The notes under the pieces were generated by a model, which made no database searches, was not told the DNA's origin, and was given only the letters and a program-made list of their open reading frames with translations. A program made the translations under genes and the position numbers. From an uncultured Planctomycetales bacterium (lineage in GTDB: Bacteria; Planctomycetota; MHYJ01; JACPRB01), in assembly GCA_964468745.1 (NCBI GenBank), contig CAYXVY010000140.1, forward strand, positions 5,945 through 69,944: a DNA stretch of 64,000 bases, read 5' to 3'. Shown here in pieces: positions 25,946 through 49,396 of this stretch. Each line of letters begins with the position of its first letter. The first letter of the stretch is position 1.

Positions 25946-25982
25946 AGGATCGACGCGCCCGATAAGCTCCGCTGGCGAACGA

Positions 25983-27293
25983 ATGGATAACCACTTGCAT
26001 CGCGTTGAGATTCAGCACGTTGCCCCGACCACCGTTGATCCCTTGGTGCTCTGGGGGGCAGGGCTGAACTCGCCCACGCTTGGTACGAGCGGCAGTTACT
26101 CAATTGGAATTGCAGGTTGGGTATTACCGCGCGCGGGACAAAGGGCTAAAGTCCAGTTCACTTGTGGACGCCGAATCCTCAGTGAACTAGAAATTGACCG
26201 GTGGCGACCTGACGTGCTGAAGCACTTCCCCGATATTCCCGGTGCCGAGCATTGCGGATTCTACGGGTCGCTACGGACGGTAGAACTCCCTAGTCAGTTC
26301 GATATCCAGATCTCCATCAAGTTGGAAGGCCACGGATTGCTTCCCATGACGACCATTCGCGGCTGTCGCAATTCCATCGTTCCTGCGCCGGTGGAATCAC
26401 TGCGTCCAATCTTTATTACATCGTTAGGGCGCTGCGGCTCGACCTATCTCGCCCTGCTGCTAAAAAACCATCCCGAGATAGTAGTTGCTGGCCCCTTCCC
26501 GTACGAAAACCACGTACTCCCTTACTGGGTTTCAGTTTTCGAGACCCTCTCAGCTCCACAGTCTTTCTTAAAGCAGCTCGCCTCGCCCCTGCGTGGACAC
26601 TATTGGTGGCTGGGCGATGCGCGCGACTCAGTAGAGACCTACCTTGAGCGCTTTCCCAACGTAGATCTCGTTGGTGGCGACGCGGTTGACGCAGCCGCAA
26701 CGTTCTGTCGTGCTCGCGTTTACGCGTACGATGCACAACTTGCAGCACGCGTCGGCAAGCCGAAGGCTGTTTATTTCGCCGAGAAGTTACCTCCGTCCGG
26801 CCCCAACCCCCTCGCGGAACAACTGTTCCCCACGACGCGTGAAATCGTACTTCTTCGCGATCCCCGAGACATTATCGCGTCCGTGCTCGCGTTCAATCGA
26901 AAGCGGGGTTTCGCATCGTTTAGCCGCGAACTCGTTCAGAGCGATCTAGAGTATGTGGCTTCCATTCGACATCAGTGGCTCGCGCTGGCCGTCGGATGGC
27001 GGAACCGAAAGACAAATGCGATAGTTGTACGTTACGAAGATCTCATGGAGAAACGTGACGAGACCGTCCGAAGCGTCTTTGGTGCATTGAATCTGTCAGC
27101 TTCTGATGACGTGCTTCGACACGTGGTGGAAGCCTCCGCACAGGAAGATGTCGCTCTTCAAGAAGCTCATATGACATCAACAAGCACTGAAAGTTCGATT
27201 GGCAGATGGAAGCGGGAGCTTCCAAGTGAGCTCCAGAAAGCCTGCAGGGACACCCTAGGTGACGCGCTGGAGGAGTTCGGTTACGCAGTGTAA
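25983..27293 (+). CDS. Sulfotransferase family protein (PAPS-dependent)
   Basis: 5'-PSB motif ITSLGRCGSTYLALLL and 3'-PB motif LLRDPRDIIASV. Track ORF 25749..27293 overlaps the convergent methyltransferase gene by ~200 bp. Starting at the internal Met (MDNHLH..., 25983) removes the overlap and the low-complexity N-terminus. Confidence 0.75.
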   Translation: MDNHLHRVEIQHVAPTTVDPLVLWGAGLNSPTLGTSGSYSIGIAGWVLPRAGQRAKVQFTCGRRILSELEIDRWRPDVLKHFPDIPGAEHCGFYGSLRTVELPSQFDIQISIKLEGHGLLPMTTIRGCRNSIVPAPVESLRPIFITSLGRCGSTYLALLLKNHPEIVVAGPFPYENHVLPYWVSVFETLSAPQSFLKQLASPLRGHYWWLGDARDSVETYLERFPNVDLVGGDAVDAAATFCRARVYAYDAQLAARVGKPKAVYFAEKLPPSGPNPLAEQLFPTTREIVLLRDPRDIIASVLAFNRKRGFASFSRELVQSDLEYVASIRHQWLALAVGWRNRKTNAIVVRYEDLMEKRDETVRSVFGALNLSASDDVLRHVVEASAQEDVALQEAHMTSTSTESSIGRWKRELPSELQKACRDTLGDALEEFGYAV

Positions 27294-27412
27294 CCGCGCT
27301 TACCACGCTTTACTGGCATATCGAAAGTCAACGCCTCCGGACTTCGACGCGCGTACGCGCACCATTTCCTGATTCTGTCTCCGGTCTCCTGAATTCTGTA
27401 TCCTCTCCGCAC

Positions 27413-28150
27413 ATGCGCCACCGGTCCGAAGTCGCCTACTTCCAGCCCACCAGCTGGACTGTCGTCGAAGAAGCGCAGGACAAGGCCGGACCCGCGGCGC
27501 GTGCCGCCTACGAACGGCTCGCCGCCGGCTACTGGAAACCCACCTTCTTCTTCCTCCGCAAGCGCGGGCTCCGGCGCGAGAACGCCGAAGACGCCACCCA
27601 GGACTTCTTCGCCTACTTCTTCGACCGCGACTTCATCCAGAACGCCGACCCCGCCAAGGGGAAGTTCCGCACCTTCATCATCGCCCACCTCGAAAACTTC
27701 CTCGCCAACCAGCGGCGTAACGCCCACACCGTGCGACGCGGCAAAGGCACCCACACCATCAGCGCCGACTTCGGCGATGCCGAGCAGGAACTCTCCGGCA
27801 TGCCCGCCTCCATCGAAACCGCCGACGCCGTCTTCCTCCGCTCGTGGGCCCTCGAAACGATGGCCAAGGCGTGGGAGCTGCTCCGCCTCAAGATGATCGA
27901 GAGCGGCGAAGGCCACTACTTCGGCCCCCTCCACACCTTCTTCAACAACGTGAAGGACCGGCCCACCCGCGCCCAGCTCGAGGAACAGCTCGGCCTGTCC
28001 TACAAACAAGTCGACCACCTCATCGACGGGACGCGCAAGCAGTTCAAGGATCAGCTCCGCCTCGTCGTCCGTCCCACGGTCGAAAACGAGAGCGAAGTGA
28101 AGGCGGAAATCGTCGCACTCTTCGACGCCCTGGGCGCGACTCAGCCGTAA
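27413..28150 (+). CDS. ECF-type RNA polymerase sigma factor (sigma-70 regions 2 and 4)
   Basis: Region 2 (ENAEDATQDFFAYFF...FRTFIIAHLENFLANQRR) and a region 4 HTH (RAQLEEQLGLSYKQVDHLIDGTRKQFKDQL). 245 aa. Confidence 0.8.
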   Translation: MRHRSEVAYFQPTSWTVVEEAQDKAGPAARAAYERLAAGYWKPTFFFLRKRGLRRENAEDATQDFFAYFFDRDFIQNADPAKGKFRTFIIAHLENFLANQRRNAHTVRRGKGTHTISADFGDAEQELSGMPASIETADAVFLRSWALETMAKAWELLRLKMIESGEGHYFGPLHTFFNNVKDRPTRAQLEEQLGLSYKQVDHLIDGTRKQFKDQLRLVVRPTVENESEVKAEIVALFDALGATQP

Positions 28151-28774: not shown

Positions 28775-28831
28775 CGGTTCGACGAAATCGAACCCGGTTT
28801 TCAATAACAAAACAGATTAGGAGATCTAACC

Positions 28832-29554
28832 ATGTTCATTCCGCAAAACCACAACGCCAGCCAGCGGCTGGTGGATACGTTCGGTACCTATCTCGCGTCC
28901 CGCCTGAAGGCGAACGCCGAGACCCGCAGTCTGTACGAGACCTTCCAGAAGGCGCAGGAGACGCTCGACGCCTCCAATGCCCTTCAGCGGAAGTCCCGGC
29001 GCGGGATGTTGGAGGCTCAGTCCGCGCGTGATCACGCCGCGTTCCTGATGGGGCGCGTGATCGCCAAGTTCCAGCTCGCCGTGCTCGCGCACGTCGAGAA
29101 GGTCCGGACGAGCCCGCTGTACGGCCGTTACTTCAAGGACGGGATGGAAGCGATCGCGCTCGTCCCGCCGCATCGCCTGGTCGAGAACGTGAAGACGTTC
29201 GAACGCGACCTGGCGATGTCCGCGGACGCCGAAGCTCTGCGGTCCTGGGTCCCGGTGCTCGTTGAAGGCCGGATGACCCTGGAGAAGTCCATGGTCGAGT
29301 ACTCCGACGCTCGGATCGTGTACACCAACGCGGTGAACGCCGAGGAGACGGAGCGGCTCCACTGGGTGGAGGCTTACCGCACCGTCGCCGGCGACCTCGT
29401 CGGGATCTACCCGGCCGATCGTCGGAAGATCGAGAGCTTCTTCCGGAAGGGTCGCAAGCCGCGCGGCGGCACGACCCCGACGGAAGCGGCCACCTCCGAC
29501 GAGACGAAGGTGATCGGTCCGCCGACGGCGGGGGAGACCCGAATCGCCATGTAG
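28832..29554 (+). CDS. Hypothetical protein (240 aa)
   Basis: Good SD (ttAGGAGatctaacc-ATG). No recognisable motifs. Lies between the sigma factor/repeat-protein genes and the Ser/Thr kinase. Confidence 0.5.
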   Translation: MFIPQNHNASQRLVDTFGTYLASRLKANAETRSLYETFQKAQETLDASNALQRKSRRGMLEAQSARDHAAFLMGRVIAKFQLAVLAHVEKVRTSPLYGRYFKDGMEAIALVPPHRLVENVKTFERDLAMSADAEALRSWVPVLVEGRMTLEKSMVEYSDARIVYTNAVNAEETERLHWVEAYRTVAGDLVGIYPADRRKIESFFRKGRKPRGGTTPTEAATSDETKVIGPPTAGETRIAM

Positions 29555-32266: not shown

Positions 32267-34501
32267 CTACTCCCGTTCGGTGAGCGTGAAGTCGGCCACC
32301 CGGAACACCAACTCACGGAGGTCCGCCGGACTCTCCAGCCTCGCGGCGTCGCAGAAGAAGCGCAGCGTGTGCCGGCCAGGGGGGACGGTCATCTTCAACA
32401 CGAGCGGCTTGAGCCGCCCGTCGATCTCGAGCTCCTCCGTGATCATGTCGCCTGTCACTCGCAGCCGCGCCGGCGCGGGCCGTCCGGTCGCGCACAGCAT
32501 CGCGAGCTCCACCCCCTTGGGTCGCACGGATGAGTTGATCACGATCAGCTTTCCCTGCGCGCCGCACCAGCGCCAGCTCTCGACAGCGGGCTCCGTTCGC
32601 GGAGCGGAGGCATCCGCGGGAGCCCGTTCCTGCGAATGGAATCCGCTGCGCCAGAGGATCAGCGGCATGTGTAGCGCCGCCTCTCGTCTTCGATTCCACT
32701 CCTCTTCGGTGAACTGCGCCCTGTACTCCGCGCCGAACCTCTCCAGGTCGAAGAACGCCAATCGACCGTTGTCGCTGACCATCGGTTCGAGCCGCAGCAT
32801 CTTCGAAAGACCGGCCTCGAGGTCCCTAGCCTTGTCCGCGAAGGCGGCACGATCGAGGGTGACGCCGGCAAATCCGGCCAGCGTCACCGTTTTCACCCAC
32901 GCGTCCATCGGCTGCGCGGCCACGGTCTCGTGCCAGAGGTCGCCTTCCCTGCCGCGCATCGCGCCGTAGCTCCATCGCAGCGCCCGGGAGTGCATGTAGC
33001 CGCGAAGGAGGTCGTAGTCGAGCATGCCGTTCACGGGACTGGATTCCGGGAACGCGTGGTACGGCAGCTGGTAGATCATCGAACCCTTCGGCACGCGCCC
33101 TTCGATCCGTCGAACGAAGTCCGCGTCACCGGCATACGCCCGTGCGGTCGCGACGTAGGAGGGTATGCACGACGGCGGCGTCATATCGAGGAGGCCCGCG
33201 ATCAACACCAGGGCCAACCCGGCGTGGACGATGCGGCGACTTCGCGTTCCCGTGCCGTACCGCCGGCACGCTTCCTGCATCAGCCACACGAGCGCCAGGA
33301 GCGCGAAGAACGCGATGAACACGCTGATGCGGTTGTACCCGCGGATGTCCGGAGAAATGTAATACGAGAAGACCGCGCCGAGTCCGCCGATGGTGCCGAG
33401 GAGGACGGACGCGATATTCAAAATGCCCAGGGAGTCCAGGAGATCCCCCGCGCCCTCGGGTTTCCGCCGCGCCAGCAGGCGCCCGACCAGGAACAGGAAG
33501 CCGCAGCTTCCAAACAGGCCCAGGGCAGCCATGCGGTTCTCCGTGACCAGGGGCGTGCCGGGTTTGTTGTATCGCGCGCTCAGGGAGGCGAGCCGCGGCA
33601 CCCTGTGGCCCTGGACGGGGACCAGGAGTTGAATGACTTTCAACCCGTAGATCTCAGCCCCCTCAGGGCTGCGCTGAACCGCCTCCGTGTTGGCGCCGTG
33701 CCGCAGGCGGTAGACCAGGTTCGGACCGATGTTCACCAGGACGCCCACGGAGATCACCCCGACAAGAATCGACGCGATGACCAGCGGACGCCATCGCCCG
33801 TGCCAAAGCCGCGCAGAGACTCCCGCGACGAGCAGCAGAAAGCAGCCGAAAAACGCGTAATAGACCGATGCAGAGGACACGAGGATGCAGGTGACGATGG
33901 TGACGACGACTTCGAAGGTTCGCAGATCCCTTGTGGACCACCGGGTGCCGTCGCGGGGAGAGAACTTGTCGAGATGCACCCAGACGATCACCAGGACCAT
34001 CAGGGGGACGTGACCATACGCGCCCACGTAGAGATGTGCGATGCTTCGGGCGAAATGGAACGGGAGGAATGCGTAGAGCAGGCTTCCGACGAGAGATGGG
34101 CCGGCTCCGAATCCGAGCCGCCGGCAGACAAACAGGGCCACCAGCGTGGTCAACGGGTACGTGAGCAGGTAGAAGACGTTGCACACGAGCGCGGGGTCTG
34201 AACAGAAGATGGAGATGAGCTTGATGACCAGGTGCCAGAGGTTATGGGCCGCCGGATAGTCGTGCGAGTCCTGGCCGAAAGGCGCCCCGAGGAAGTCGTT
34301 GTGCAGATACCAGCCGTTGTCGATCGCGCCCTTGATCGCTGCAACGACCGCCATGCTGTCGCCCCCGGCGTACGACAGCGGGACGTGAAGATCCGCACGC
34401 CACAGTTCCATCACGCAGGTGAGGGCCACCAGGGTGATGAGAAGGGCGCCGCCATACAGGGCGGCCGTTCGAGCGATCTGTTCCCGCGGCGGACATTGCA
34501 T
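32267..34501 (-). CDS. Large polytopic membrane protein (~744 aa; ~13 TM + C-terminal soluble domain), YfhO/GT-C-like; candidate polysaccharide glycosyltransferase or polymerase
   Basis: Track ORF 32267..35689(-). Only the part after MQCPPREQ... (ATG ~34501) looks coding; the rest is antisense to the GT2 gene. Many hydrophobic helices. Conserved-looking periplasmic loop YAGGDSMAVVAAIKGAIDNGWYLHNDFLGAPFGQDSHDYP. Confidence 0.45.
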   Translation of the reverse strand: MQCPPREQIARTAALYGGALLITLVALTCVMELWRADLHVPLSYAGGDSMAVVAAIKGAIDNGWYLHNDFLGAPFGQDSHDYPAAHNLWHLVIKLISIFCSDPALVCNVFYLLTYPLTTLVALFVCRRLGFGAGPSLVGSLLYAFLPFHFARSIAHLYVGAYGHVPLMVLVIVWVHLDKFSPRDGTRWSTRDLRTFEVVVTIVTCILVSSASVYYAFFGCFLLLVAGVSARLWHGRWRPLVIASILVGVISVGVLVNIGPNLVYRLRHGANTEAVQRSPEGAEIYGLKVIQLLVPVQGHRVPRLASLSARYNKPGTPLVTENRMAALGLFGSCGFLFLVGRLLARRKPEGAGDLLDSLGILNIASVLLGTIGGLGAVFSYYISPDIRGYNRISVFIAFFALLALVWLMQEACRRYGTGTRSRRIVHAGLALVLIAGLLDMTPPSCIPSYVATARAYAGDADFVRRIEGRVPKGSMIYQLPYHAFPESSPVNGMLDYDLLRGYMHSRALRWSYGAMRGREGDLWHETVAAQPMDAWVKTVTLAGFAGVTLDRAAFADKARDLEAGLSKMLRLEPMVSDNGRLAFFDLERFGAEYRAQFTEEEWNRRREAALHMPLILWRSGFHSQERAPADASAPRTEPAVESWRWCGAQGKLIVINSSVRPKGVELAMLCATGRPAPARLRVTGDMITEELEIDGRLKPLVLKMTVPPGRHTLRFFCDAARLESPADLRELVFRVADFTLTERE

Positions 34502-34540: not shown

Positions 34541-35512
34541 ATGCGACTCGATCGCAGCCCCCGCCGCGCGTCGAAGGTCTTGACACCCCGCACGGGCACG
34601 GTTACCGTCACCCCCGCGCACGTGGGGAATGGAATAGTGAATCGGCCGTCGGTCGCCGTCGTTCTCACCTCCTACAACGGCAAAGACGACACGCTGGAGT
34701 GCCTGCGCTCCCTGGCTGCCCTCACCTACCCGAACTACTCCGTCATCGTCATGGACGACGCCTCCGGCGACCGCACCGCCGACACCGTCGCGCGCGACTT
34801 CCCCAGCGTCCGCGTCGTCCACAACCCGAAGAATCTCGGCTATATCCGCAACCTCAACCGCGGCGTCATGCTGTCGATGGACGCCGACTACATTCTCATC
34901 CTCAACAACGACCTGACGGTCGCGCCTGACCTGATCGACCGACTCGTCGACGTCGCGGAACGCGACCCCAGGATCGCGCTCTGTGGTCCGGAAATGTATC
35001 GCTATCACGAACCCGACACGCTGTGGGCCGCGGGCGGCGACGTTTCGCCTTGGACCGGGCGTTCCTACCATCACGAGACGAACGGTCTCGCGGGACCCGC
35101 CGATGTGGGCTACATCCCGGGCGCGGCCATGCTCGTCCGGCGCGATGCCTTCGAGCAGATCGGTTTCTTCGAAGCCGCGTACCATGCGTACTTCGAGGAA
35201 GTGGACTTCGCGTTCCGTCTGCGCCGCAGGGGCCACCGCGTCGTCTGCGTCCCGGACGCGCGCATCTGGCACAAGGTCAGCGCGACGATGACGCGCGTGC
35301 TCTCCCCCGAGCAGCGCAAGTTCTACGGCGTGCGCAATCGCCGCTGGGTGCTGCGCAGCCATGCGTCCCCCTGGAAACGCCCGCTGCTCCACGCCATCGA
35401 CGCCGTCGCGAGCGCCTTCCACTTCGCGTACACCATGGCGCGCTCCCCCGGCGAGGCCGGCGCCGTCTTCCGCGGCTACTGCGCCGGGTGGCGGCCAGTC
35501 ACACCCAGCTGA
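34541..35512 (+). CDS. Glycosyltransferase family 2 (real start probably the GTG near 34637)
   Basis: VAVVLTSYNGKDDTLECLRSL...VIVMDDASGDRT...FEEVDFAFRLRRRGHRV. Confidence 0.75.
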   Translation: MRLDRSPRRASKVLTPRTGTVTVTPAHVGNGIVNRPSVAVVLTSYNGKDDTLECLRSLAALTYPNYSVIVMDDASGDRTADTVARDFPSVRVVHNPKNLGYIRNLNRGVMLSMDADYILILNNDLTVAPDLIDRLVDVAERDPRIALCGPEMYRYHEPDTLWAAGGDVSPWTGRSYHHETNGLAGPADVGYIPGAAMLVRRDAFEQIGFFEAAYHAYFEEVDFAFRLRRRGHRVVCVPDARIWHKVSATMTRVLSPEQRKFYGVRNRRWVLRSHASPWKRPLLHAIDAVASAFHFAYTMARSPGEAGAVFRGYCAGWRPVTPS

Positions 35513-35640
35513 TCTCTCAGGCCCTTTTAACGCCGAGAGCGCAGACGCGCTGCAGAAGAGAGCGCAGGTTTGTGGTGGAACGTGGGGCGTGGTCCTTCCG
35601 GAACTTCCGGACAACCGCTGAGCGCGCAGGGGCAAGCAGA

Positions 35641-35845
35641 GGGGTTCCGGGCGCTGAGGTGTCCGCCGCCGTGCGGGCAACGCCCGCACGAGCGGCCACG
35701 CAGAAGCCGTTTCCGAAACGCCCAGCCCTTCTTCGGGAGCGTTTCGGAAACGGCTTCTGCGTGGCCGCGCCCGCGCTACGCGCGGGCCGGCGGACCCGAA
35801 AGAAGCTCTCCGCGCCCCAAGCGACTCCTGTCCTCCTCTGCGTTC
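35641..35845. repeat. Copy 2 of the ~200-bp palindromic structured repeat element; lies between the convergent GT2 and GT2-GT-C genes
   Basis: Perfect 22-bp inverted repeat (gcagaagccgtttccgaaacgc / gcgtttcggaaacggcttctgc, ~35700-35760), loop ccagcccttcttcggga. Arms ggggttccgggcgctgaggtgtccgccgccgtgcgggcaacgcccgcac and gcgcgggccggcggacccgaaagaagctctccgcgccccaagcgact match copy 1 (inverted). Confidence 0.75.
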
Positions 35846-35893
35846 TCTGCGGTTGTCCGGCAGGCGAGCGGAGATTTGATGCCCCGCGTGTCT

Positions 35894-37990
35894 CTAGTTC
35901 GCCTTGAACACGGACACCCCCTCGAACCGCGCGACCCGTTGCCCGATCTTCTCGAGCTCCTCGAGCGCACCCGGCGCCTCTTTGCGCAGATCTTTCTCCA
36001 CCACGATCGCGTACTCCCCATCGCGCAGCTCCACTCGTCGACCCGGCAGGATCGGCTCCGACCGCCGACCGACGTACCACTCCACCCGCTGCGTGTTCGA
36101 CCACAGGCCCGACGGCGACTGCGCCTTCACCCACAGCGCCGCTTCCTTCACCGGCCGATCCTCAGTTCGACGCGGCCGCGCGCTCGCCACCACCATCCCC
36201 GTCAGCGCGACGCCGATCGCGATCGACGACGCGACACGCACGAGCTTGGCGCGGGCCCGCGACGCCAGCCAGTCGATGAACGCCACCGCCGCCGCCGCCG
36301 CGAGGGGCAGTACGAAGAGCACCGGCAGCAAGACCTGTCGCTGGCTCACCATGTATCCGCTCGCCGCCGCGAGGATCGGCCCCAGCATCGCCCCCGCGCT
36401 CAGGCAGAGCAGGAACGCCAAGCCGAGCGGACGCACCCGACCGCGCAGAAACCAGATCCCCAGCGCCAGCGGCGGAAGCACGAGCCACGCGAGACTCTTG
36501 AGCTTCGACGCGTAGCGCGCGAACGCGGCCCCCCACCCCGACTCCAGCGGCGCGTGTGGCCCCATCGGGGGAAGCTCGGGCCGCTTGCCGAGCGACTGCA
36601 TCGCCGCCTGCACGCCTCCGCGCCACGTGATCTTCCACTCCCCGGTGAGCTCCCTCCAGAAGTTGAGCAGCGGCATCGCCGCGGCCACGAACACCGCCGC
36701 ACCAGCCACTGCCGACCCCGCGACTCCCCAACGAAACGGACGGCGCATCAGAGCGATGCCCACCAGCGCGATCGGCACGTAAATCCCCTCGGGTCGGACA
36801 TAGTACGCCAGCGCGCCGACAAGCCCCGACGCGATCGTGAGCCCCGCGCTCCCCCGCATGACCCCGAACCACGCGAGCGAAATCGCGCTGATGAAGAACA
36901 GGTGGAACAGTCCCTCCGTCATCACGTCCGCGTGCGCCTGCGCGTAGTACGGCGCGCACGCGAAGAGCAGCGCCGCCAGCATGCCCGCCCGCCGGCCCGT
37001 CACGTCCATCGCCAGCGCGAGGAACGGCGCGACGGCCAGCGCCCCCGCCAGCGCCGAGACGAGATACCCCGCGCGCTCCCAGTCTCCGATCAGCGAATGC
37101 GCGGCCGCGATCGCGACCGGATATCCCGGATGAATTCCGTGCCCCATCCACGTCTTCCAAGTCCCCTGCGTCAAATCCTGCGCGGCGAAGAGATAGGAGG
37201 ACGCATCGGTCGTCAGCACTTCCGTGAGCGACGCCTGCACCATGCGCAGCGCGAACGCGAGGAGCACGATGCCGATCGGCGCCGCCATCGCCACCGCGTA
37301 CCACTTGAGGTAGTGCGGCAGCCACTTCAGGATTCTGAAGCGGCTCTCGCCCGCGGTGCGGTCCTCCCACGTGCTCGGCACTTCAGCGACGTTCCATCCG
37401 CGCACGTGCGCCTTCACCGTCATCTCGAGGCCGAGCTCGAACCCCGCCTCGCTCTGCACCGGCACCTTCGACAGGAACTCGCGACTGTACGCGCGGAAGT
37501 TGTTCGTAGCGTCGTGGGTCGCGACGCCGGCGAGCCAGTGGAGCGACAGGCCGGCCGCGCGCGAGCCGAGCCGTTTCAGGAGCGGTCCTCCCTTTTGCGA
37601 CCCACCCGGCATGTACCGCGAGCCGCTGACGACGTGCGCCCCCTCGTCGCGGATCTTCCGCGCCATCGCACGGATGATCTCCGGCGGATCGGAGAGGTCT
37701 GCCATCGTGACGACGACGACGTCCCCTGTCGCCGCCGCCATGCCGGCCCGGATCGCGAACGCGGGACCGCGTCCGAGGTCGTTCTTCACGAGCCGGACGC
37801 TCGGCGGCTTGTCGGGCATCGCGGCGATTGCGGCGAGCGTGCGGTCCTCGTCGAAGTCGTAGCAGACGAGGAGCTCGTGATCCTCCGAGGCCAGAGCGTG
37901 TGCCAGTCGCCGCAGGCACTCGGCGATGTTTCGGTCTTCGTTGTAGACCGGGATGACGACGCTGACGCGGCGAGCAATCAGAGGGGGCAT
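35894..37990 (-). CDS. Fusion protein: polyprenyl-phosphate glycosyltransferase (GT2, DPM1/GtrB/ArnC-like) + large C-terminal polytopic membrane domain (GT-C-like)
   Basis: N-terminus RVSVVIPVYNEDRNIAECLRRL...DFDEDRT...LVKNDLGRGPAFAIRAGM is the Dpm1/GtrB-type GT2. It is followed by >400 aa of TM helices. Track start TTG 38011; preferred ATG 37990 (MPPLIARR), 10 nt after a TATAAC -10. Confidence 0.6.
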   Translation of the reverse strand: MPPLIARRVSVVIPVYNEDRNIAECLRRLAHALASEDHELLVCYDFDEDRTLAAIAAMPDKPPSVRLVKNDLGRGPAFAIRAGMAAATGDVVVVTMADLSDPPEIIRAMARKIRDEGAHVVSGSRYMPGGSQKGGPLLKRLGSRAAGLSLHWLAGVATHDATNNFRAYSREFLSKVPVQSEAGFELGLEMTVKAHVRGWNVAEVPSTWEDRTAGESRFRILKWLPHYLKWYAVAMAAPIGIVLLAFALRMVQASLTEVLTTDASSYLFAAQDLTQGTWKTWMGHGIHPGYPVAIAAAHSLIGDWERAGYLVSALAGALAVAPFLALAMDVTGRRAGMLAALLFACAPYYAQAHADVMTEGLFHLFFISAISLAWFGVMRGSAGLTIASGLVGALAYYVRPEGIYVPIALVGIALMRRPFRWGVAGSAVAGAAVFVAAAMPLLNFWRELTGEWKITWRGGVQAAMQSLGKRPELPPMGPHAPLESGWGAAFARYASKLKSLAWLVLPPLALGIWFLRGRVRPLGLAFLLCLSAGAMLGPILAAASGYMVSQRQVLLPVLFVLPLAAAAAVAFIDWLASRARAKLVRVASSIAIGVALTGMVVASARPRRTEDRPVKEAALWVKAQSPSGLWSNTQRVEWYVGRRSEPILPGRRVELRDGEYAIVVEKDLRKEAPGALEELEKIGQRVARFEGVSVFKAN

Positions 37991-38374: not shown

Positions 38375-39463
38375 GTGCCCCGCATCGGGATCAACGCAAC
38401 CTTCATCCACGACCCGCCGACCGGCATCGCCACATATTCCATCCAGGTCGCGCGCCGGCTGCTGCGCAGTCCCGACTATGCGGCGTTCGTATCGTTGCCG
38501 GGTCAGATCGGCCCGGAGAACGACTCCCGCATCCTCGGGACCTACCCGCGCTTCGCCCCCAACGGCCGCGCCTTGACGCATCTGAAGCGGCTCTTCTGGG
38601 AGCAGTTCAGTCTTCCGCGCCTGTCGCGAAAGCACGGACTCGCCCTGATCTATTCCCTGGCGGCGGAGGCGTCCCTGGTGGACTCCATGCCGACGGTGAT
38701 CACGCTCTATGACGTGGTGCAACTCGCGCGGCCCAACTTCTTCCCGAAGCACCGGATCTATCACAGGCGCGTGGTCCCGCGCATCGCGCGCCGCGCGGCC
38801 GCCGTCATCACGATTTCGGAATTCAGCAAGGGGGAGATCGCGCACTACTGCGACGTGCCGCCGGAGCGCATCCACGTTGCCCCGTGCGCCGTGGACCTCG
38901 ACCGGTTTCGGCCGCGTCCGCCGGGGACGCCGCGCGCGCGCTACGGGCGCTTCGTGCTCATGGTTGGCGCGCAGCACCCGCACAAGAACGTGGCGAGAGG
39001 TCTGCGTGCCTTCGATCGGTTGAGCGACGACGATCTCAAGCTCGTGTTGATCGGGGCGCACGACGGCATGGGGATGGAGGAGTCGATCGACGGTCTGCGC
39101 CATCCGGAGCGGATCGTCGCCGCTGGACGCGTGAGCACCGACGAACTCGTCCAGTACTACGCGGATGCGGCGGCATTTCTGTTCCCGTCGCTCTACGAGG
39201 GGTTCGGGTTGCCCCCTCTCGAGGCGATGGCCTGCGGCACGCCCGTGGCGGCGGCGCGTGCGACGGCGCTTCCCGGCACGTGCGGCGACGCGGCGCGGCT
39301 GTTCGATCCGGGTTCCGAGGAGGATATGGCCGAGGCGCTGCGGGAGGTGATCGCCCATCCGCAGCCTTACCGCGAGCGCGGACTGGCGCGTGCGGCCGCG
39401 TTCTCGTGGGACCGTACCGCGCAGACGATAGACGCGGTGCTGCGCGCCGTGACCAACGATTGA
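38375..39463 (+). CDS. Glycosyltransferase family 4
   Basis: GT4 C-terminal signature FLFPSLYEGFGLPPLEAMACGTPVAAARATALPGTCGDAARLFDP. Confidence 0.8.
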   Translation: MPRIGINATFIHDPPTGIATYSIQVARRLLRSPDYAAFVSLPGQIGPENDSRILGTYPRFAPNGRALTHLKRLFWEQFSLPRLSRKHGLALIYSLAAEASLVDSMPTVITLYDVVQLARPNFFPKHRIYHRRVVPRIARRAAAVITISEFSKGEIAHYCDVPPERIHVAPCAVDLDRFRPRPPGTPRARYGRFVLMVGAQHPHKNVARGLRAFDRLSDDDLKLVLIGAHDGMGMEESIDGLRHPERIVAAGRVSTDELVQYYADAAAFLFPSLYEGFGLPPLEAMACGTPVAAARATALPGTCGDAARLFDPGSEEDMAEALREVIAHPQPYRERGLARAAAFSWDRTAQTIDAVLRAVTND

Positions 39464-39494: not shown

Positions 39495-40940
39495 GTGACC
39501 GAAGTTCAATCGGCAACCACGTCGCTGCCGCAGGCGGCACACGCGACCGAGCGCCCGCGGTCACGGTACCTGGCACGCGTACTGGCGGAAGCCACGTGCA
39601 CGGTCGCGCTTGCGGTGAGCGACCTGGCCGGCGCGTGCCTGTCGGTGGCCGTCGCGTACGGCATACATCGTCTGCTCACGACGTGGCTCACGTTGAAACC
39701 GCTCAGCCTGGCGCACGGCCTCGGGAACGCGATCTGGCTCGCGATCCCGCTTCTCGCGGTCTCGCTGCTGCGCGGCACGTATACCCGCAAAGTGCCGTTC
39801 TGGGAGGCGGCGCGGCTCCTGCTGGGGTCGGTGGTCGTCGCGATCGTCGTTTCCTTTATCGGCCTCTATCTGACGCGCTTGGCGCCCGAGATGTCGCGCT
39901 CGCTGTTCGTCCTGTCGGGCGTGGCGATGGTCGCGATCGTGCCGCTGCTGCGATTGAGCTGCGTCGCGCTGCTGTACCGGCTGAAGCTTTGGGGACAGGA
40001 GGTCGCGGTGGTCGGGCATGCCACGCACGTCCACACGGTGGCGGCGAACCTCGAGCGCGACCACATGCTCGGCTATCACGTGGTGCAGACGATCGAGGTG
40101 ACAGGAGACGAAAAGGAGCTGATGCCGAGGACAAACGCGGCGATCGTCGTCATGGAAGGGCTCGCGCCCGAGGCGGCCTCGCGCCTCGTCTCCGCGCTGC
40201 ACGCCGTCATCCGACGCGTGACCATCATGCCGGTGCTCACGGAGCTGCCGTACGCCTGGACCACACCCCATTTCCTGCTCGACCGCCGCTACATGCTGCT
40301 GACCACGGACAACCGGCTGAAGGAGCCGGTGAATCTGCTGCTCAAACGCGTGTTCGATTTCGTCCTGGCGGCGCTGATGACGGTGCTCCTCGCGCCGTTC
40401 TTCCTATTGATGGCGCTGGCGATCCGCCTGGAGTCGAGCGGTCCGGCGTTTTTCGCCCACAAGCGCATCGGCAGGCGCGGCCGCACGTTCCCGTGCCTCA
40501 AGTTCCGCACGATGTACGCCGACGCCCAGCAGCGCCTGCAGTCGATCCTCGATGCCGACCCCGCAAAGCAGGCGGAATGGGACGCGACGTACAAGCTCAA
40601 GGACGATCCGCGCATCACGGGCGTGGGGAGATTCCTGCGCAAGACGAGTCTCGACGAGTTTCCACAGCTCTTCAATGTGCTCGCCGGGCAGATGAGCCTG
40701 GTCGGCCCGCGGCCGATCGTCGAGGGGGAGATCGCGAAGTACGGCGACGGCTATGCGGTCTACAGCGAGGTGACGCCCGGGATCACAGGGCTCTGGCAGG
40801 TGTCGGGGCGCACGGAGACGAGCTACGCGGAGCGCGTGGCGATCGACGTGTGCTACGTTTGCAACTGGTCGCTGTGGCTCGATCTCGTTGTCTTGTTGCG
40901 GACGATTCCCGCCGTCCTTTCGAAGCGCGGCGCGTATTGA
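39495..40940 (+). CDS. Polyprenyl-phosphate sugar phosphotransferase (WbaP/WcaJ-type initiating glycosylphosphotransferase)
   Basis: N-terminal TM segments. C-terminal bacterial sugar transferase domain (KRVFDFVLAALMTVLLAPFF...PCLKFRTMY...DEFPQLFNVLAGQMSLVGPRP). Confidence 0.85.
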   Translation: MTEVQSATTSLPQAAHATERPRSRYLARVLAEATCTVALAVSDLAGACLSVAVAYGIHRLLTTWLTLKPLSLAHGLGNAIWLAIPLLAVSLLRGTYTRKVPFWEAARLLLGSVVVAIVVSFIGLYLTRLAPEMSRSLFVLSGVAMVAIVPLLRLSCVALLYRLKLWGQEVAVVGHATHVHTVAANLERDHMLGYHVVQTIEVTGDEKELMPRTNAAIVVMEGLAPEAASRLVSALHAVIRRVTIMPVLTELPYAWTTPHFLLDRRYMLLTTDNRLKEPVNLLLKRVFDFVLAALMTVLLAPFFLLMALAIRLESSGPAFFAHKRIGRRGRTFPCLKFRTMYADAQQRLQSILDADPAKQAEWDATYKLKDDPRITGVGRFLRKTSLDEFPQLFNVLAGQMSLVGPRPIVEGEIAKYGDGYAVYSEVTPGITGLWQVSGRTETSYAERVAIDVCYVCNWSLWLDLVVLLRTIPAVLSKRGAY

Positions 40941-40948: not shown

Positions 40949-42040
40949 ATGGCGCGCATACTCCACGTCAGCAAGCTCTACGCCCCGTGGATCGGCGGGG
41001 TGGAGCGCGCGGTCCAGGACATGGCCGAGGGGTTGCGCCTCGAGCACGAGGTGCGGGTGCTCGTGTGCAATCACCACCGGCGGTACGTCCGCGAGACGAT
41101 CAATCATGTACCCGTCGTGCGCGCGCGCACCCCGAAGATCGCGTTCTCGATGCCGCTCTCGCTGCAGTTTCCGTCGTTGCTGGCGCACTATGCGCGGCGG
41201 GCCGATCTCGTGCACTTTCACAGCCCGTTTCCGCTGGGCGATCTCGCGGGCGTGCTCGACGGGTGCGAGGGCAGGCCGGTCATCGTCTCGTACCACTTTC
41301 ACGTCGTGCGGCAGTGGTGGGCGATGCCGTTCTACGGCCCGGTGCTTCGCGCGCTGCTGCGGCGGGCGGACCGCGTGATCGTTTCGGGCGCGCGGATGCG
41401 CGACAGTTCGCGCGCGCTCATGGAGGTTGCGGAGAAGTGCCGCATCGTTCCGTACGGCGTTCGCGACGAAGCCGCCGCCCCGCGGGAAAGCTTCGCGCTT
41501 CCGGCGCGCGACTTCGTCCTCTTCGTCGGCCGCCTGGTGCCGTACAAGGGGTGCGAGGTCCTCATCCGGGCGATGCCGCAGGTCGACGCACCGCTGGTGA
41601 TCGTTGGGCAGGGTCCGCTGCGCGGGGCGCTCGAACGGCTTGCGCGGGAGTTGGGAGTCGCCTCCCGGGTGCACTTTCTCGGCGCGCTTTCCACGCCGCG
41701 CATCCGCCACTGCTATGCCGAGTCGCGCGTCTTCGCGTTCCCGTCCGTCATCAACACGGAGGCGTTCGGGATCGTGCAGCTCGAGGCGATGTCGTTCGGC
41801 AAGCCGGTGGTCAACACGGACCTGCCGACGAGCGTGCCCGAGGTGGGGCCGCACGACGTGACGGGGCTCACGGTGCCGCCGCGCGACGCGACTGCGCTGG
41901 CCGGGGCGCTCAACGCGATCCTGCGTGAGCCCGAGCGCTATGAACGCTACAGCCGGGCGGCGCGCGCGCGGGCGGGCGAGCTTTCCACCGCACGATTTCT
42001 CGACGGCGTTCGCGCAGTCTATCGCGAGGTGCTGTCGTGA
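40949..42040 (+). CDS. Glycosyltransferase family 4
   Basis: Starts MARILHVSKLYAPWIGGVERAV. Has GT4 EX7E region (FAFPSVINTEAFGIVQLEAMSFGKPVVNTD). Embedded in a longer out-of-frame track ORF (39596..42040). Confidence 0.8.
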   Translation: MARILHVSKLYAPWIGGVERAVQDMAEGLRLEHEVRVLVCNHHRRYVRETINHVPVVRARTPKIAFSMPLSLQFPSLLAHYARRADLVHFHSPFPLGDLAGVLDGCEGRPVIVSYHFHVVRQWWAMPFYGPVLRALLRRADRVIVSGARMRDSSRALMEVAEKCRIVPYGVRDEAAAPRESFALPARDFVLFVGRLVPYKGCEVLIRAMPQVDAPLVIVGQGPLRGALERLARELGVASRVHFLGALSTPRIRHCYAESRVFAFPSVINTEAFGIVQLEAMSFGKPVVNTDLPTSVPEVGPHDVTGLTVPPRDATALAGALNAILREPERYERYSRAARARAGELSTARFLDGVRAVYREVLS

Positions 42041-43569
42041 GCGAAGTTGCGGCCGGGGAGCGCGGCGCGGAGCGCGACCGTCGTGCGCGCCTGGGCTTCC
42101 TGCTGGCCAACGCCTATCGCGTGGTGCGCCTCGGGCTCGGGCTCATGAGCGTGCCGCTGGCGATCACGTATTTCGAGCGCGAGCAGTACGGGTTCTGGCT
42201 GGTCGGTTTGAGCGTGGTCGCCTATCTCTCGCTCAGCCATTTCGGGGTCGGCAACAGCCTGTTGAATACGGTCGCGCGCCAGCGGGGCGCCGCCGGGCCG
42301 GACGACCAGAAGCGCGCCGTCTCCAGCGCCTTCTTTCCGTTCCTGGTCGCCGCGCTCGTCATCGGTGTCGTCGGCTTCATTCTCGTCCGGATCCTTCCGA
42401 TCGACCGCCTCTTCGGACTGTCCAGCAAGGTTCGCGAAGCTCCCGCGGTCCTTACGGTTCTCATGGCATGGGCGCTGATCGATCTCGTGCTGCGAATCCC
42501 GCTGGCGGCGCAGCAGGGGCACCAGGAGGACTACCGCGCCCATGCGTGGAACATCGTCGGGGCCATCGCCGCATTCAGCGGGCTGGTGGCGGTCACGCGC
42601 CTCGACGGCGGGCTTCTGGGGTGGGCCTACGTGTCGCTCGTGGCGAACATGGGTGTCGAGGCGATCAACCTCGTACTTTTCCTTCGCGAGCACCCCGAAT
42701 GCCGGCCGTCGCTGCGGTTCTTCGACTGGGGAGAGGCGAAGCTCCTGTTCACGCGCGGGTTCCTGTTCTGGTGCCTTCAGATCTGCTCGCTGCTCATCGT
42801 CAGCACGGACAACGTGGTCATCGCGCGACTGATGGGCGCGACCGAGGTGGCGACCTACGGCGTGGTCTTCCAGCTCGTCATGTTCGGCACGACGGTGATT
42901 CACGCGCTCAGCGCGTCACACTGGGGCGCGTACGCGGAGGCGGCCGGGCGCGGCGATTGGGATTGGATCGGCCGCTCGTTCTCACACATCATTCAGCTCT
43001 CGGTGTGGCTCGCGGCGGCGGCGGGCCTGTGCGTGGCTGCCTGGGGGCAGGATCTCCTGCGCGTGTGGCTGCGCGGCGAGATCACGGCGTCGGCGACGCT
43101 CCTGGCGGTGATGGGCGCGTATCTCGCGATCAACGTCTGGTACAACGCGTACAGCGTGCTGCTGGGGGCGCTCGACCGCGTCGGTCGGCAGGTTATCGCA
43201 TTTGGCTTGGAAGCGGCGGTGCATCTCACACTCTCGCTGATTCTCGTGACGAAGATGGGAATCGAAGGGGCGGCGTGGGCCACGATCGTTCCGGCAGTCG
43301 CCATCACGGCATGGCTGCTGCCGGTCCTCGCACGCCGGGCACTGGGAGGGCATGCGCCGCGCGTGCTGTTCAATCTCCTGCGCGGAGTCGCGATCCCGGC
43401 GGCGCTCGCGCTGGGCGCTACGGTCCTGCTCCGTCGCTGGCTCGGCGAGAGCGCTCCGCTCATCCGCTTGCTGGTGGGTTCGGCGGGCACGCTGGCGGTG
43501 TTCGGCGTCTCCTCGCTCGTGCTGATGGGGCGCGAGAGGGCGATGCTGGCGCTCAGGAAGATCACGTAG
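42037..43569 (+). CDS. Polysaccharide biosynthesis/flippase protein (Wzx-like, MOP superfamily), ~14 TM
   Basis: 510 aa, hydrophobic throughout, with Wzx-like N-terminal (LANAYRVVRLGLGLMSVPLAITYF). GTG start overlaps the upstream stop. Confidence 0.65.
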   Translation: MSEVAAGERGAERDRRARLGFLLANAYRVVRLGLGLMSVPLAITYFEREQYGFWLVGLSVVAYLSLSHFGVGNSLLNTVARQRGAAGPDDQKRAVSSAFFPFLVAALVIGVVGFILVRILPIDRLFGLSSKVREAPAVLTVLMAWALIDLVLRIPLAAQQGHQEDYRAHAWNIVGAIAAFSGLVAVTRLDGGLLGWAYVSLVANMGVEAINLVLFLREHPECRPSLRFFDWGEAKLLFTRGFLFWCLQICSLLIVSTDNVVIARLMGATEVATYGVVFQLVMFGTTVIHALSASHWGAYAEAAGRGDWDWIGRSFSHIIQLSVWLAAAAGLCVAAWGQDLLRVWLRGEITASATLLAVMGAYLAINVWYNAYSVLLGALDRVGRQVIAFGLEAAVHLTLSLILVTKMGIEGAAWATIVPAVAITAWLLPVLARRALGGHAPRVLFNLLRGVAIPAALALGATVLLRRWLGESAPLIRLLVGSAGTLAVFGVSSLVLMGRERAMLALRKIT

Positions 43570-44505: not shown

Positions 44506-44615
44506 GTGCGATCAGCCCTTATGCACACGTTTCACCGGATTTCCGTCGTCTTCAGCATAGCAAGGCGCGGCCGGCGTGAGGCGCGATATACTGTCGTTCC
44601 TCCTCGAGGATCACC

Positions 44616-46496
44616 GTGCTCGCGTTGCTCCCCGGCCTCACGTTCCTGGCGCTGCTGGCCGTCCTGCGCACCCGGGCGCCGCACGCGGACTGGAGGGACA
44701 GCTATCTGGCGGCCGCTGTACTGATCGGCGTCTACCTCACCGCCGCCACCGAAGTCCTGAGTGTCCTCCACGCCTTGCATGCGACGGCGCTGGTCTGCGT
44801 CTGGACCCTGCCGTGCGCCCTGCTCACCGTCTGGCTGATTCGCAAGCGCACCGATTGGTCGACTTCACTGCTGCCGCGGGGTTGCCGACGGGCTGAGTCG
44901 ATGATCGTTCTTACGATTGTCGGTATCGTCGGCCTGATCGCAATGATCGCACCGCCGAACAACTGGGATTCGATGACCTACCACATGGCGCGAGTGGCGC
45001 ACTGGAAGCAGAACGCGACAGTCGCCTTCTATCCCACGCACATCATGCGACAGCTGCATCCGCCGCCGGGATCGGAATACGCCCTGGCGCACGTCTTCAT
45101 CCTCGGCGGGGATCGGTTTGTGAATTTGGTCCAGGGGTTCGCGTTCGCAGCCGCAGCTGTGGCGGCCAGTCGACTCGCCGACCATCTCGGCGCCCCTGCT
45201 CCTGCGCAGTGGCTCGCCGCGATGCTGGTGCTCACCACGCCGATGGCGATTCTGCAGGGATCGAGCACGCAGAATGACCTCGTGGCAGCCATGTGGGTGG
45301 CGATTTTCGTCACCTTCGGGACCCGGTGGCTGAGCGATCGCAGGTTCGTGTCCCTCATGCTTGGCGCCGGAGCGCTCGGATTGGCGCTGCTGACGAAGGG
45401 CACGTCGTACGTCTTCGCGGCGCCGTTCGTGATCGGATTCGGAGCGGCGATCATCAGACATCGCGGGCTCCGGGCTTGGCGACCCCTTGTGGCCACTGTC
45501 GCGATCGTCGTGGCACTGAACGCAGGCCACTACGCGCGGAACGCCGGACTCTATGGTCATCCCCTCGGTCCGGCCACCGGCAGAGACGCGGACGAGAAAG
45601 TGAAGTACACGAACGACATCGTGACGCCACTGTCCGTGGCTTCGACCATCGTCCGCAACGTCGCGAGCCATTTCATGTCGACCCCCCTCCGGCCCGTGAA
45701 TCGGCTCGCCCACGCTGTCACCGTCGCGCTTCATGAACGCACAGGGTGCGACGTCAGCGACCCCCGCACGACCTTCGGTCTCCCCTTCGCGATCCCCCGC
45801 TCGTGGAGGCACGAGGATTCGATCGGAAATCCACTGCATCTGTTGATCGGCGCCGTGGCGCTCGCCCTGTTCATCCGCCGGCGCCGGGAGATTCCCAACG
45901 CGCGAAATCTGGCCGCGTTCGTCGCGGCGTGCGCCGCGGCCGCGCTCCTGTTCTGCGTGCTGTTCCGATGGCAGATGTGGAGCACGCGCCTTCACCTCCC
46001 GCTATTCGTCCTGGGAAGCGCGTTCGCCGCCTCGGCGCTTCCGCCGGGCGCCACGCGCCTGCGCTTCGCGGTGCTGGCCGTCGTTCTCGTCGGAGCCGTG
46101 CCGTGCCTTGTTTACAACAAGAGCCGGCCCATCGTCGGCGAGGGTAGCATTCTCACGACCCCGCGGACGGAGCTCTATTTCAGCAATCGCCGTGACCTGT
46201 ATGCCCCCTATCAAGACGCCGCCGCCCGAGTCCGCGCCGCGGGGGTGACGGAGATCGGTCTCATCGCCGGATCGGACGACTGGGCGTATCCGCTGTTCGC
46301 GCTGCTCGGCCCGGGGGTGCGCATCGTGCACGTCGATGTGGAGAACGCCTCGCGCACGCTGCCGGGGGCGCGCCTTCACGGTTCGCTCGACGTGATCGCA
46401 TGTCTGGATCCCGCACGCACGTCCCAGCTCAGCACTGATCGCGACTACGCGCTCTGGGCCGCATTCGACCGCATATCGCTGTTCCGGAGGCGATGA
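44616..46496 (+). CDS. Polytopic membrane protein (~11 TM + ~200-aa C-terminal domain), GT-C/PMT-ArnT-like; candidate glycosyltransferase or polymerase
   Basis: 626 aa. Loop with NNWDSMTYHMARVAHW after TM1-2. Repeated hydrophobic helices, then a soluble C-terminal domain. Confidence 0.4.
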   Translation: MLALLPGLTFLALLAVLRTRAPHADWRDSYLAAAVLIGVYLTAATEVLSVLHALHATALVCVWTLPCALLTVWLIRKRTDWSTSLLPRGCRRAESMIVLTIVGIVGLIAMIAPPNNWDSMTYHMARVAHWKQNATVAFYPTHIMRQLHPPPGSEYALAHVFILGGDRFVNLVQGFAFAAAAVAASRLADHLGAPAPAQWLAAMLVLTTPMAILQGSSTQNDLVAAMWVAIFVTFGTRWLSDRRFVSLMLGAGALGLALLTKGTSYVFAAPFVIGFGAAIIRHRGLRAWRPLVATVAIVVALNAGHYARNAGLYGHPLGPATGRDADEKVKYTNDIVTPLSVASTIVRNVASHFMSTPLRPVNRLAHAVTVALHERTGCDVSDPRTTFGLPFAIPRSWRHEDSIGNPLHLLIGAVALALFIRRRREIPNARNLAAFVAACAAAALLFCVLFRWQMWSTRLHLPLFVLGSAFAASALPPGATRLRFAVLAVVLVGAVPCLVYNKSRPIVGEGSILTTPRTELYFSNRRDLYAPYQDAAARVRAAGVTEIGLIAGSDDWAYPLFALLGPGVRIVHVDVENASRTLPGARLHGSLDVIACLDPARTSQLSTDRDYALWAAFDRISLFRRR

Positions 46497-47335: not shown

Positions 47336-47414
47336 GCGAAGCGGAACTGTAGCACACGCGGGCCGACAGTGTTCGCTTCAACCCGTGCACCTCGCGGGAT
47401 AGACTGACTGCCCC

Positions 47415-48395: not shown

Positions 48396-48430
48396 CGGAA
48401 CTCGCGCGCGGGTGTTAGACTTCGCCCCTC

Positions 48431-49396
48431 GTGAAACGGGCGCTGATCACCGGCATCACCGGTCAGGACGGGTCGCACCTCGCCGACCTTCTCCTCGAGA
48501 AGGGGTACGAAGTGCACGGCATGGTGCGCCGCTCCAGCACGGAGAACTTCGAGCGCATCGCGCATCTCACGCACCGGGTGACGCTGCACCAGGCCGACCT
48601 TCTCGACCAGCTCTCGATCATCGACATGATCCAGACTGTCCGGCCGAAGGAGGTGTACAACCTCGCCGCGCAGTCGTTCGTTCCGATCTCGTGGGTCCAG
48701 CCGGTCCTCACCGCCGAGTACACGGCGCTGGGCGCCACCCGGGTCCTCGAGGCAATCCGTCTGGTCGATCCCAAGATCCGCTTTTACCAGGCGTCGTCGA
48801 GCGAGATGTTCGGGAAAGTCCTCGAGACCCCGCAGAAGGAGTCGACGCCGTTCTATCCGCGCAGCCCGTACGGCGTCGCCAAGTGCTACGCGCACTTCCT
48901 CACGGTGAACTACCGCGAGAGCTACAACCTGTTCGCGTGTTCGGGAATCCTGTTCAACCACGAAGGTCCGCGGCGCGGCCGCGAGTTCGTCACCCGGAAG
49001 ATCACACACGCGGTCGCCGAAATCAAGCTGGGCCGCCGCAAGAACCTGGCGCTCGGAAACCTCGATGCGCGCCGCGACTGGGGATTCGCGGGGGACTACG
49101 TCCGCGCCATGTGGCTGATGCTCCAGCTGAAGAAGCCCGACGATTTCGTCATCGCCACGGGACGGTCCCACACCGTCCGCGAGTTCTGCGACATCGCCTT
49201 TGCGCACGCCGGGCTCGACTGGCGGAAGCACGTCGTCGTGGACCGCAAGCTCTACCGTCCCGCGGAGGTGCACACGCTCTGCGGCGACGCGTCCAAGGCG
49301 CGACGCAAGCTGGGCTGGAAGCCAGCGGTGGGGTTCGAAGCGCTCGTGCACATGATGGTGGACGCGGATCTCGAGAGGCTGGGCCGCACGTCCTGA
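48431..49396 (+). CDS. gmd: GDP-mannose 4,6-dehydratase
   Basis: [33 protein letters not shown]...[37 protein letters not shown] is the Gmd signature. GTG start. Confidence 0.9.

Follow-up and report, generated by a model that had tools for sequence, protein, structure and literature searches.

A predicted fusion of a polyprenyl-phosphate sugar synthase with a GT-C-type membrane domain in an uncultured Planctomycetales bacterium

Can one polypeptide carry both ends of a lipid-linked glycosylation route? The loading of a sugar onto a lipid carrier and its transfer outside the cell by a GT-C enzyme are familiar steps, performed by separate proteins, in a route that spans bacterial O-antigens, teichoic acids and eukaryotic O-mannosylation; to our knowledge, the enzymes involved have always been studied as separate proteins. 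The question is raised by a gene in a 64,000-nucleotide stretch of contig CAYXVY010000140.1 (hereafter, the window) from an uncultured Planctomycetales bacterium, in which a GT2 domain of the synthase type is followed by a polytopic GT-C-like domain. Sequence comparison and a structure model make it fairly probable that the product is a bifunctional membrane glycosyltransferase that would combine the first and last steps of 'three-component' extracytoplasmic glycosylation. The pathway logic is textbook material, and it is the fusion of synthase and GT-C domain itself for which we found no published description: a full-text literature search returned no account of a GT2-GT-C (synthase-transferase) fusion, which does not prove that none exists, and in databases such proteins are labelled simply 'glycosyltransferase'. 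The gene is organised as follows:

35894-37990, minus strand: whole gene, GT2 and GT-C fusion; a single open reading frame (ORF) of 698 amino acids (aa), ATG at 37990, stop codon 35894-35896
37334-37969, minus strand: cytoplasmic GT2 (GT-A fold) domain of the DPMS/ArnC/GtrB type, aa 8-219
37229-37333, minus strand: continuous helix forming the fusion joint, aa 220-254; an amphipathic interface helix (ILKWLPHYLKWY) running into transmembrane (TM) helix 1 (DSSP, hydropathy)
36182-37294, minus strand: membrane domain of GT-C fold, aa 233-603; 11 predicted TM helices, N terminus inside, C terminus outside
36668-37129, minus strand: Pfam PMT_2 match, aa 288-441, E 2.4e-10, 41.3 bits against a gathering score of 26.1
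35897-36166, minus strand: C-terminal soluble alpha/beta domain, aa 609-698 (DSSP), predicted to be periplasmic

Before any function is assigned, the fusion itself has to be secured, given that two adjacent genes might have been joined by an error of assembly or sequencing, or by a recent read-through of the pseudogene type. No positive evidence points to such an origin, although among 1.84 billion representative proteins the exact pairing of this GT2 subfamily with this PMT_2 clade was seen only once. A separately assembled Logan contig of 2,016 bp, possibly from the same sample, encodes an identical 449-aa fragment (P0001) that runs across the GT2/GT-C junction. Codon-position GC is uniform along the ORF, with third-position GC (GC3) of 0.82-0.94 in each 100-codon block, and the space between the two domains is too small for a separate start or stop. 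Furthermore, the joint is modelled as a continuous helix, and its sequence, ESRFR.W.W.P.YL.WY..AMA.P, is kept in about 90 fused relatives. Because the base composition is even, the Logan junction identical, the joint conserved and the modelled helix unbroken, the ORF is no frameshift artefact but a genuine fusion, and an artefactual origin of any kind is extremely improbable. The first-pass annotation of this DNA, made from the letters alone, had described one unsplit ORF with the motifs VVIPVYNE, DEDRT and KNDLGRGPAF; all three are found in the translation. An alternative in-frame TTG start at 38011 would lengthen the protein by 7 aa.

The N-terminal half had been described as a GtrB/ArnC/Dpm1-like GT2, and this identification stands. 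Pfam assigns aa 10-174 to Glycos_transf_2 (E 5.5e-22), and the closest solved relatives of the domain in both sequence and fold are the three structurally characterised polyprenyl-phosphate glycosyltransferases, DPMS, ArnC and GtrB. An AlphaFold2 model of the 698-aa protein, built from a 52-sequence alignment and assigned secondary structure with DSSP, reached a pLDDT of 91.7 and a pTM of 0.90; in Foldseek searches, one half of this model retrieved DPMS, ArnC and GtrB, and the other half retrieved STT3A and ArnT. Matches of the protein to NCBIfam were all below threshold and were headed by dolichyl-phosphate hexose transferase, PgfS and ArnC.

For individual residues, the GT2 domain was mapped onto Pyrococcus furiosus DPMS (PfDPMS) by phmmer alignment, with residue roles taken from Gandini et al. 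(PMC5526996). In PfDPMS, Asp91 binds the metal and the diphosphate, whereas Asp89, together with Lys178, contacts the mannose and not the metal; Arg117, Arg131 and Ser135 bind the lipid phosphate, Asp39 binds the base, Glu12 belongs to the A-loop network and Arg202 lies in the A-loop (PMC5526996). Two clusters of counterparts stand out in the target:

37688-37705, minus strand: motif M96-A-D98-L-S100-D101, counterpart of PfDPMS 89-DADLQH-94; D98 corresponds to Asp91 and M96 to Asp89
37562-37618, minus strand: R125, K139 and S143, counterparts of the polyprenyl-phosphate-binding Arg117, Arg131 and Ser135 of PfDPMS

These positions are strongly conserved in the subfamily. The counterpart of the metal-binding Asp is present in all homologues (D98, 243/243), and among the approximately 243 sequences M96 is kept in 235 and D101 in 240, so that Met instead of Asp at the first position of the motif is the rule. 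The lipid-phosphate triad is similarly stable (R125 in 244, K139 in 236 and S143 in 234 of about 244 homologues with a residue at the column), and R211, the counterpart of Arg202 in the A-loop, is invariant or nearly so among the approximately 243 homologues. Glu12 and Asp39 correspond to E18 and D45, respectively. The counterpart of Lys178 is E185, a position that is acidic in the homologues (E in 191, D in 27). Because both mannose-contacting residues of DPMS are thus replaced, Asp89 by M96 and Lys178 by E185, the donor sugar is probably not mannose, and the MADLSD motif looks like a sign of a different donor and not of a dead enzyme.

In principle, the domain could instead be a GT2 of the ordinary kind, working at the cytoplasmic face to lengthen a lipid-linked oligosaccharide or some other acceptor, next to an independent GT-C domain, the two then performing unrelated steps of the cluster. 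This explanation is unlikely because the top sequence and fold matches are specifically to DPMS, ArnC and GtrB, and the DPMS lipid-phosphate triad and the A-loop Arg are nearly invariant in the subfamily. Moreover, genes of the GtrA family occur near subfamily members in actinomycetotal loci, and the PfDPMS residue that is Met in the target, Asp89, touches the sugar and not the metal.

Turning to the C-terminal half, we asked whether it has any real similarity to GT-C enzymes, as had been proposed. It does: the PMT_2 match is above the gathering score, and the modelled fold retrieves STT3A and ArnT. The nearest relatives of the domain are free-standing PMT_2 proteins of 450-520 aa that align over nearly their full length with 34-48% identity, and the profile of this clade also matches AglB (E 0.004). 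An alignment of the target with 19 stand-alone homologues of its GT-C domain (20 sequences; A2) contains nine invariant residues, D262, H287, P288, P291, R399, E401, G402, P440 and R551, all of which the target possesses. Two sites are of particular interest:

37205-37207, minus strand: D262, candidate catalytic acid, invariant in 20/20 sequences of A2; 8 residues past TM helix 1, in the predicted first extracytoplasmic loop
36785-36796, minus strand: R399-P-E401-G402, invariant motif of the PMT_2 clade at a membrane boundary; candidate phosphate- or substrate-binding site

The location of D262 matches that of the first-loop acidic residue of GT-C enzymes. Given that the GT2 domain is cytoplasmic and that a single helix, TM1, crosses the membrane between them, D262 should face away from the GT2 domain, that is, toward the extracytoplasmic side. 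More specific assignments failed. Membership in the PMT family (GT39) was rejected because Pfam detects no MIR domain in the fusion protein and the mannose-contacting DPMS residues are not kept in the fused synthase. Likewise, the protein is not an ArnC/ArnT equivalog, scoring 55.8 bits with the NCBIfam ArnC model, for which the cutoff is 529, and matching no ArnT model. More distant homologues of the GT-C domain also lie in polysaccharide clusters, near genes for Wzy, Bac_transf, ABC-2 transporters, sulfotransferases and sulfatases; two of these homologues (in loci L084 and L086) adjoin sulfotransferase or sulfatase genes.

The membrane part is smaller than the more than 400 aa of TM helices originally described: its polytopic nature is borne out, but it comprises a membrane domain of about 370 aa followed by a soluble domain of about 90 aa. 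Hydropathy analysis reveals approximately ten hydrophobic peaks within aa 233-603, one of them at aa 233-251. From the modelled helices and the distribution of Arg and Lys we infer 11 TM helices with the N terminus inside and the C terminus outside, an arrangement that fits the positive-inside rule. The anchor that follows the amphipathic helix (ILKWLPHYLKWY) is the GT-C domain and not a dedicated hairpin. In the region of the C-terminal soluble domain, all 20 sequences of A2 align to the C terminus, P0129 being much shortened there.

Related fusions are plentiful, although not in the exact form seen here. The GT2 subfamily is tightly conserved (47-72% identity) across Planctomycetota, Mycobacterium and other Actinomycetota, Acidobacteriota, Treponema, a metagenome-assembled genome of Selenomonadaceae and others. 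Three architectures occur: some members are soluble proteins of about 245 aa without a TM helix, mycobacteria have a methyltransferase-GT2 fusion, and in the third form a polytopic domain follows the GT2, giving proteins of 640-1160 aa, most of them planctomycetotal. We retrieved 93 fused proteins, and in 88 of these the membrane domain belongs to a single family that is marked by an HNEHRIP motif and has no Pfam match; a representative of this family (P0013) was modelled with a pLDDT of 95.5, and its membrane domain folds as GT-C-like. The same GT2 is also fused to other PMT_2 domains, above threshold in P0222 and P0165 and below it in L047. Thus, the search for similar fusions turned up dozens of GT2 and GT-C-like fusions in Planctomycetota, while the pairing with the PMT_2 clade of the target was not found again.

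The planctomycetotal proteins labelled 'glycosyltransferase' (for example P0013, P0003 and P0006, 640-1160 aa) have the same GT2 subfamily, at 62-72% identity, and the same joint as the target but differ in that their HNEHRIP membrane domain has no detectable sequence similarity to the PMT_2 domain. We accordingly rejected the possibility that the two membrane domains are one family by sequence: the hidden Markov model of the target clade finds none of the other fused proteins, and hhalign gives a probability of 26%. Composition and the shared joint probably account for a weak match obtained with hmmsearch --max (E 8e-10, bias 52). At the level of the modelled fold, both domains appear GT-C-like. 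The synthase has therefore been joined to GT-C-type domains several times, and the target would be a lineage-specific version of such a fusion.

Gene neighbourhoods, counted over 80 genome loci (L004-L083), link the GT2 subfamily to sugar-nucleotide enzymes and membrane partners. In 72 of the 80 loci, the GT2 has a 339-aa short-chain dehydrogenase/reductase (SDR; 64-78% identity across phyla) no more than 6 kb away, and a nucleoside diphosphate (NDP)-sugar dehydrogenase is additionally present in 65. Examples of this conserved module of NDP-sugar dehydrogenase, 339-aa SDR and DPMS-like GT2 are:

L043, 7701-12502
L009, 7024-12043
L008, 4328-15976

The module is found in Planctomycetota, Acidobacteriota, spirochaetes and non-tuberculous mycobacteria. 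In Singulisphaera sp. Ch08 (L043), the order is dehydrogenase, SDR, soluble GT2 and a convergent gene for a 591-aa HNEHRIP-type membrane protein, which is a split form of the common GT2-HNEHRIP fusion. In many mycobacterial loci, an HNEHRIP-type protein is encoded 157 bp or less after the methyltransferase-GT2 gene, with GtrA-family genes (PF04138) and a GT87-like protein nearby; in the M. kansasii/gordonae group, the GT2 has an N-terminal S-adenosylmethionine (SAM) methyltransferase domain, and GtrA-family, HNEHRIP-type GT-C-like and GT87-like genes flank it. This set is the signature of synthase, GtrA and GT-C, and it supports the identification of the GT2 as a polyprenyl-phosphate sugar synthase. 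In these relatives, the sugar appears to derive from the dehydrogenase and SDR pair. UDP-ManNAc dehydrogenases come nearest to the dehydrogenase, and no solved structure is closely related to the SDR; an attempt to name the donor sugar from the pair failed, as the NCBIfam and Protein Data Bank (PDB) matches were generic only. The module of dehydrogenase, SDR and synthase, joined by GtrA and GT-C-like genes in some loci, is conserved across phyla and uncharacterised.

A Rosetta-stone check for split versions of the two domains of the target, made near the stand-alone GT-C homologues P0121-P0124, P0002, P0126 and P0128, was partly positive. The dehydrogenase and SDR pair (53% and 75% identity) adjoins P0122 (L001/L002), where the pair alone stands beside the GT-C homologue. 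In L003, a weakly similar GT2 (31% identity over 96 aa) is two genes away from the GT-C homologue; in L086, the gene 14 bp upstream of it encodes a GT2, but one with no relation to the DPMS-like subfamily (BLASTP E 0.049).

Taken together, these observations give computational support to the earlier proposal that synthase and transferase are combined in one protein: both domain identities, the functional residues and the recurrence of fusion or adjacency point the same way. Under the bifunctional reading, the GT2 domain at the cytoplasmic face would move a monosaccharide from a nucleotide sugar onto polyprenyl phosphate, with D98 holding the metal and the diphosphate, R125, K139 and S143 holding the lipid phosphate, and the amphipathic helix at aa 220-232 setting the active site at the membrane surface. 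The polyprenyl-phosphate sugar would then shift to the outer leaflet, a step for which no gene in the window accounts. Finally, the GT-C domain, with D262 in the first periplasmic loop, would use the lipid-linked sugar to glycosylate an exported acceptor, most likely the polysaccharide of the surrounding cluster, which is probably sulfated and fucose-containing. The first of these steps is predicted from conserved residues and homology, and the last from fold, conserved residues and topology; that the GT-C domain would consume the product of its own GT2 is suggested by the fusion and by comparative genomics. The location in a polysaccharide cluster makes the addition of a side-branch sugar after export, as first proposed, plausible.

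Several findings weigh against this scheme. The canonical DXD motif reads M-A-D in the GT2 domain (MADLSD compared to DADLQH in PfDPMS). The 64-kb window yielded no flippase candidate of the GtrA or small multidrug resistance (SMR) type: jackhmmer detected no GtrA-like ORF, and there is no small ORF with multiple TM helices; the flippase gene could lie elsewhere in the genome. The dehydrogenase and SDR pair that is typical of the subfamily is also absent from the window. Furthermore, this GT2 subfamily is not seen beside the closest stand-alone GT-C homologues on the short contigs that carry them, so that the case for donor-acceptor coupling between the two domains comes mainly from the fusion itself.

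An alternative of some weight, although a good deal less probable than the bifunctional scheme, is that the polytopic domain serves mainly as an anchor or activator of the DPMS-like synthase and that other GT-C enzymes, such as the protein encoded at 44580-46496, consume the lipid-linked sugar, the fused GT-C domain using a different donor or none. Membrane partners in such a role are the Lnt-like D1 domain of M. tuberculosis Ppm1, GacJ for GacI and DPM3 for human DPM1. Stand-alone members of the GT2 subfamily, being soluble proteins of about 245 aa, would indeed need a membrane partner; the second GT-C-like gene, which has no GT2, lies at a distance of 6.6 kb; and natural fusions of synthases to membrane partners other than GT-C are documented in GacJ-GacI, where the synthase is joined to a small membrane activator (PMC10821137). 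However, the fused domain retains each invariant residue of the free-standing clade, including D262 and the RPEG motif, which indicates that it is under the same constraint as an active enzyme. Moreover, the subfamily is recurrently tied to GT-C-type proteins, being fused to at least two unrelated GT-C-type lineages (P0222, P0165 and, more weakly, L047 among the PMT_2 fusions) and adjacent to such proteins when split (L043 and many mycobacteria), a pattern that pathway coupling explains more easily than anchoring alone. Anchoring and transferase roles can also coexist.

A stronger version of the bifunctional scheme is that of a self-contained machine, in which the polyprenyl-phosphate sugar would be passed along the GT-C membrane domain to the periplasmic site without a separate GtrA or SMR flippase. 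We regard this version as quite improbable. If true, it would explain why a GtrA- or SMR-type flippase was not found near any of the fused or other planctomycetotal loci, and it would provide a defined system for the long-unsolved membrane crossing of polyprenyl-monophosphate sugars. In any case, the fusion sharpens the question of how lipid-linked sugars are flipped, offering an entry point to this problem and to the cross-phylum module.

The closest parallels in logic are the three-component systems (GtrA/GtrB/Gtr* of Shigella and Salmonella phages, GacI/GacJ/GacL, CsbB/GtcA/YfhO and the pentofuranose systems, PMC11127046), with which the target shares a GT2 polyprenyl-phosphate sugar synthase, a GT-C acting outside the cytoplasmic membrane on a finished glycan, and a polysaccharide-cluster location. 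Unlike in these systems, synthase and GT-C are in one polypeptide, with no GtrA-type component in the window, and unlike GtrB, the GT2 has no C-terminal TM hairpin but leads straight into TM helix 1 of the GT-C domain. Compared to P. furiosus DPMS (PDB 5mlz; Dpm1/Ppm1) and the PMT-type O-mannosyltransferases that such synthases work with, the target has Met and Glu in place of Asp89 and Lys178, and it has neither the MIR domain nor the loop architecture of PMTs, with 13% identity to Pmt4. The pair of ArnC and ArnT, the undecaprenyl-phosphate (Und-P)-L-Ara4FN synthase and the lipid A L-Ara4N transferase, probably differs in acceptor, the context of the target pointing to a polysaccharide and not to lipid A; of the genes examined in the window, L009 and L043, none was seen to encode an aminotransferase, a formyltransferase, a deformylase or ArnE/F. 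Rhizobium RgtE/RgtA-D and Francisella FlmF2/FlmK are comparable to the ArnC/ArnT pair. In M. tuberculosis Ppm1 (Rv2051c), a polyprenyl-phosphate mannose synthase (D2) is fused to a polytopic Lnt-like D1 domain. Ppm1 and GacJ-GacI show that a synthase which is soluble or weakly anchored can be joined to a membrane partner, but their membrane part is N-terminal and consists of an Lnt-like acyltransferase domain or a small activator, whereas here it is GT-C and C-terminal. The natural head-to-tail fusion argues that synthase and transferase act as a physical unit, and for structural biology it offers a single-chain complex with both active sites and the path between them.

The gene sits in a large glycan-biosynthesis region of the window:

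39495-40940: initiating phosphoglycosyl transferase (Bac_transf)
38375-39463 and 40961-42040: GT4 genes
41944-43569: Wzx-like flippase
44580-46496, plus strand: second PMT_2-like, GT-C-like membrane protein, 638 aa, PMT_2 E 2.6e-5, just under the gathering score; motif NNWDSMTYH, no fused synthase
47403-49396: Gmd (above cutoff) and an Fcl match (483.8 bits, cutoff 500)
16786-18527: Wzm/Wzt ABC-2 transporter
12383-15379, minus strand: CysD and CysNC, for synthesis of 3'-phosphoadenosine 5'-phosphosulfate (PAPS)
3294-5426, plus strand: GT4-sulfotransferase fusion
7062-9299, plus strand, and 9454-11427, minus strand: large multidomain glycosyltransferases, GT4+GT2 and GT2+GT4, near Wzm/Wzt
35604-35863, no strand: nested inverted repeats with 37-nt (92% complementary) and 29-nt (83%) arms, just downstream of the target gene

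Several further GT2 and GT4 genes are spread over the window; of the stand-alone GT2 genes scanned with NCBIfam, none is of the polyprenyl-phosphate type. The presence of a GT4-sulfotransferase fusion alongside CysD and CysNC points to a sulfated glycan as the product of the cluster, and the Wzm/Wzt transporter and the Wzx-like flippase represent two export routes. The protein encoded at 44580-46496 could be another consumer of lipid-linked sugar. The gene at 32267-34480 (minus strand) encodes a 737-aa protein in which about nine hydrophobic segments are combined with some 300 aa of soluble C-terminal sequence; it matches nothing in Pfam or NCBIfam and may be a further polytopic enzyme of glycan processing.

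Between approximately 20000 and 28000, the GC content drops to 0.58-0.62, compared to about 0.65-0.69 elsewhere in the window. The ORFs at 27263-28150 and 28808-29554 belong to no Pfam family, and the ORF at 24750-27262 has no TM helices; the stretch may be a foreign or divergent insert. The inverted repeats at 35604-35863 lie inside the 380-bp gap between the target gene and a convergent GT2 gene (34541-35512). They are unique in the window, and their predicted RNA fold is very stable, with an energy of -197.9 kcal/mol (z -10.7). An Rfam search with this element returned nothing above threshold; it may serve the two convergent genes as a bidirectional terminator or be a structured element of another kind.

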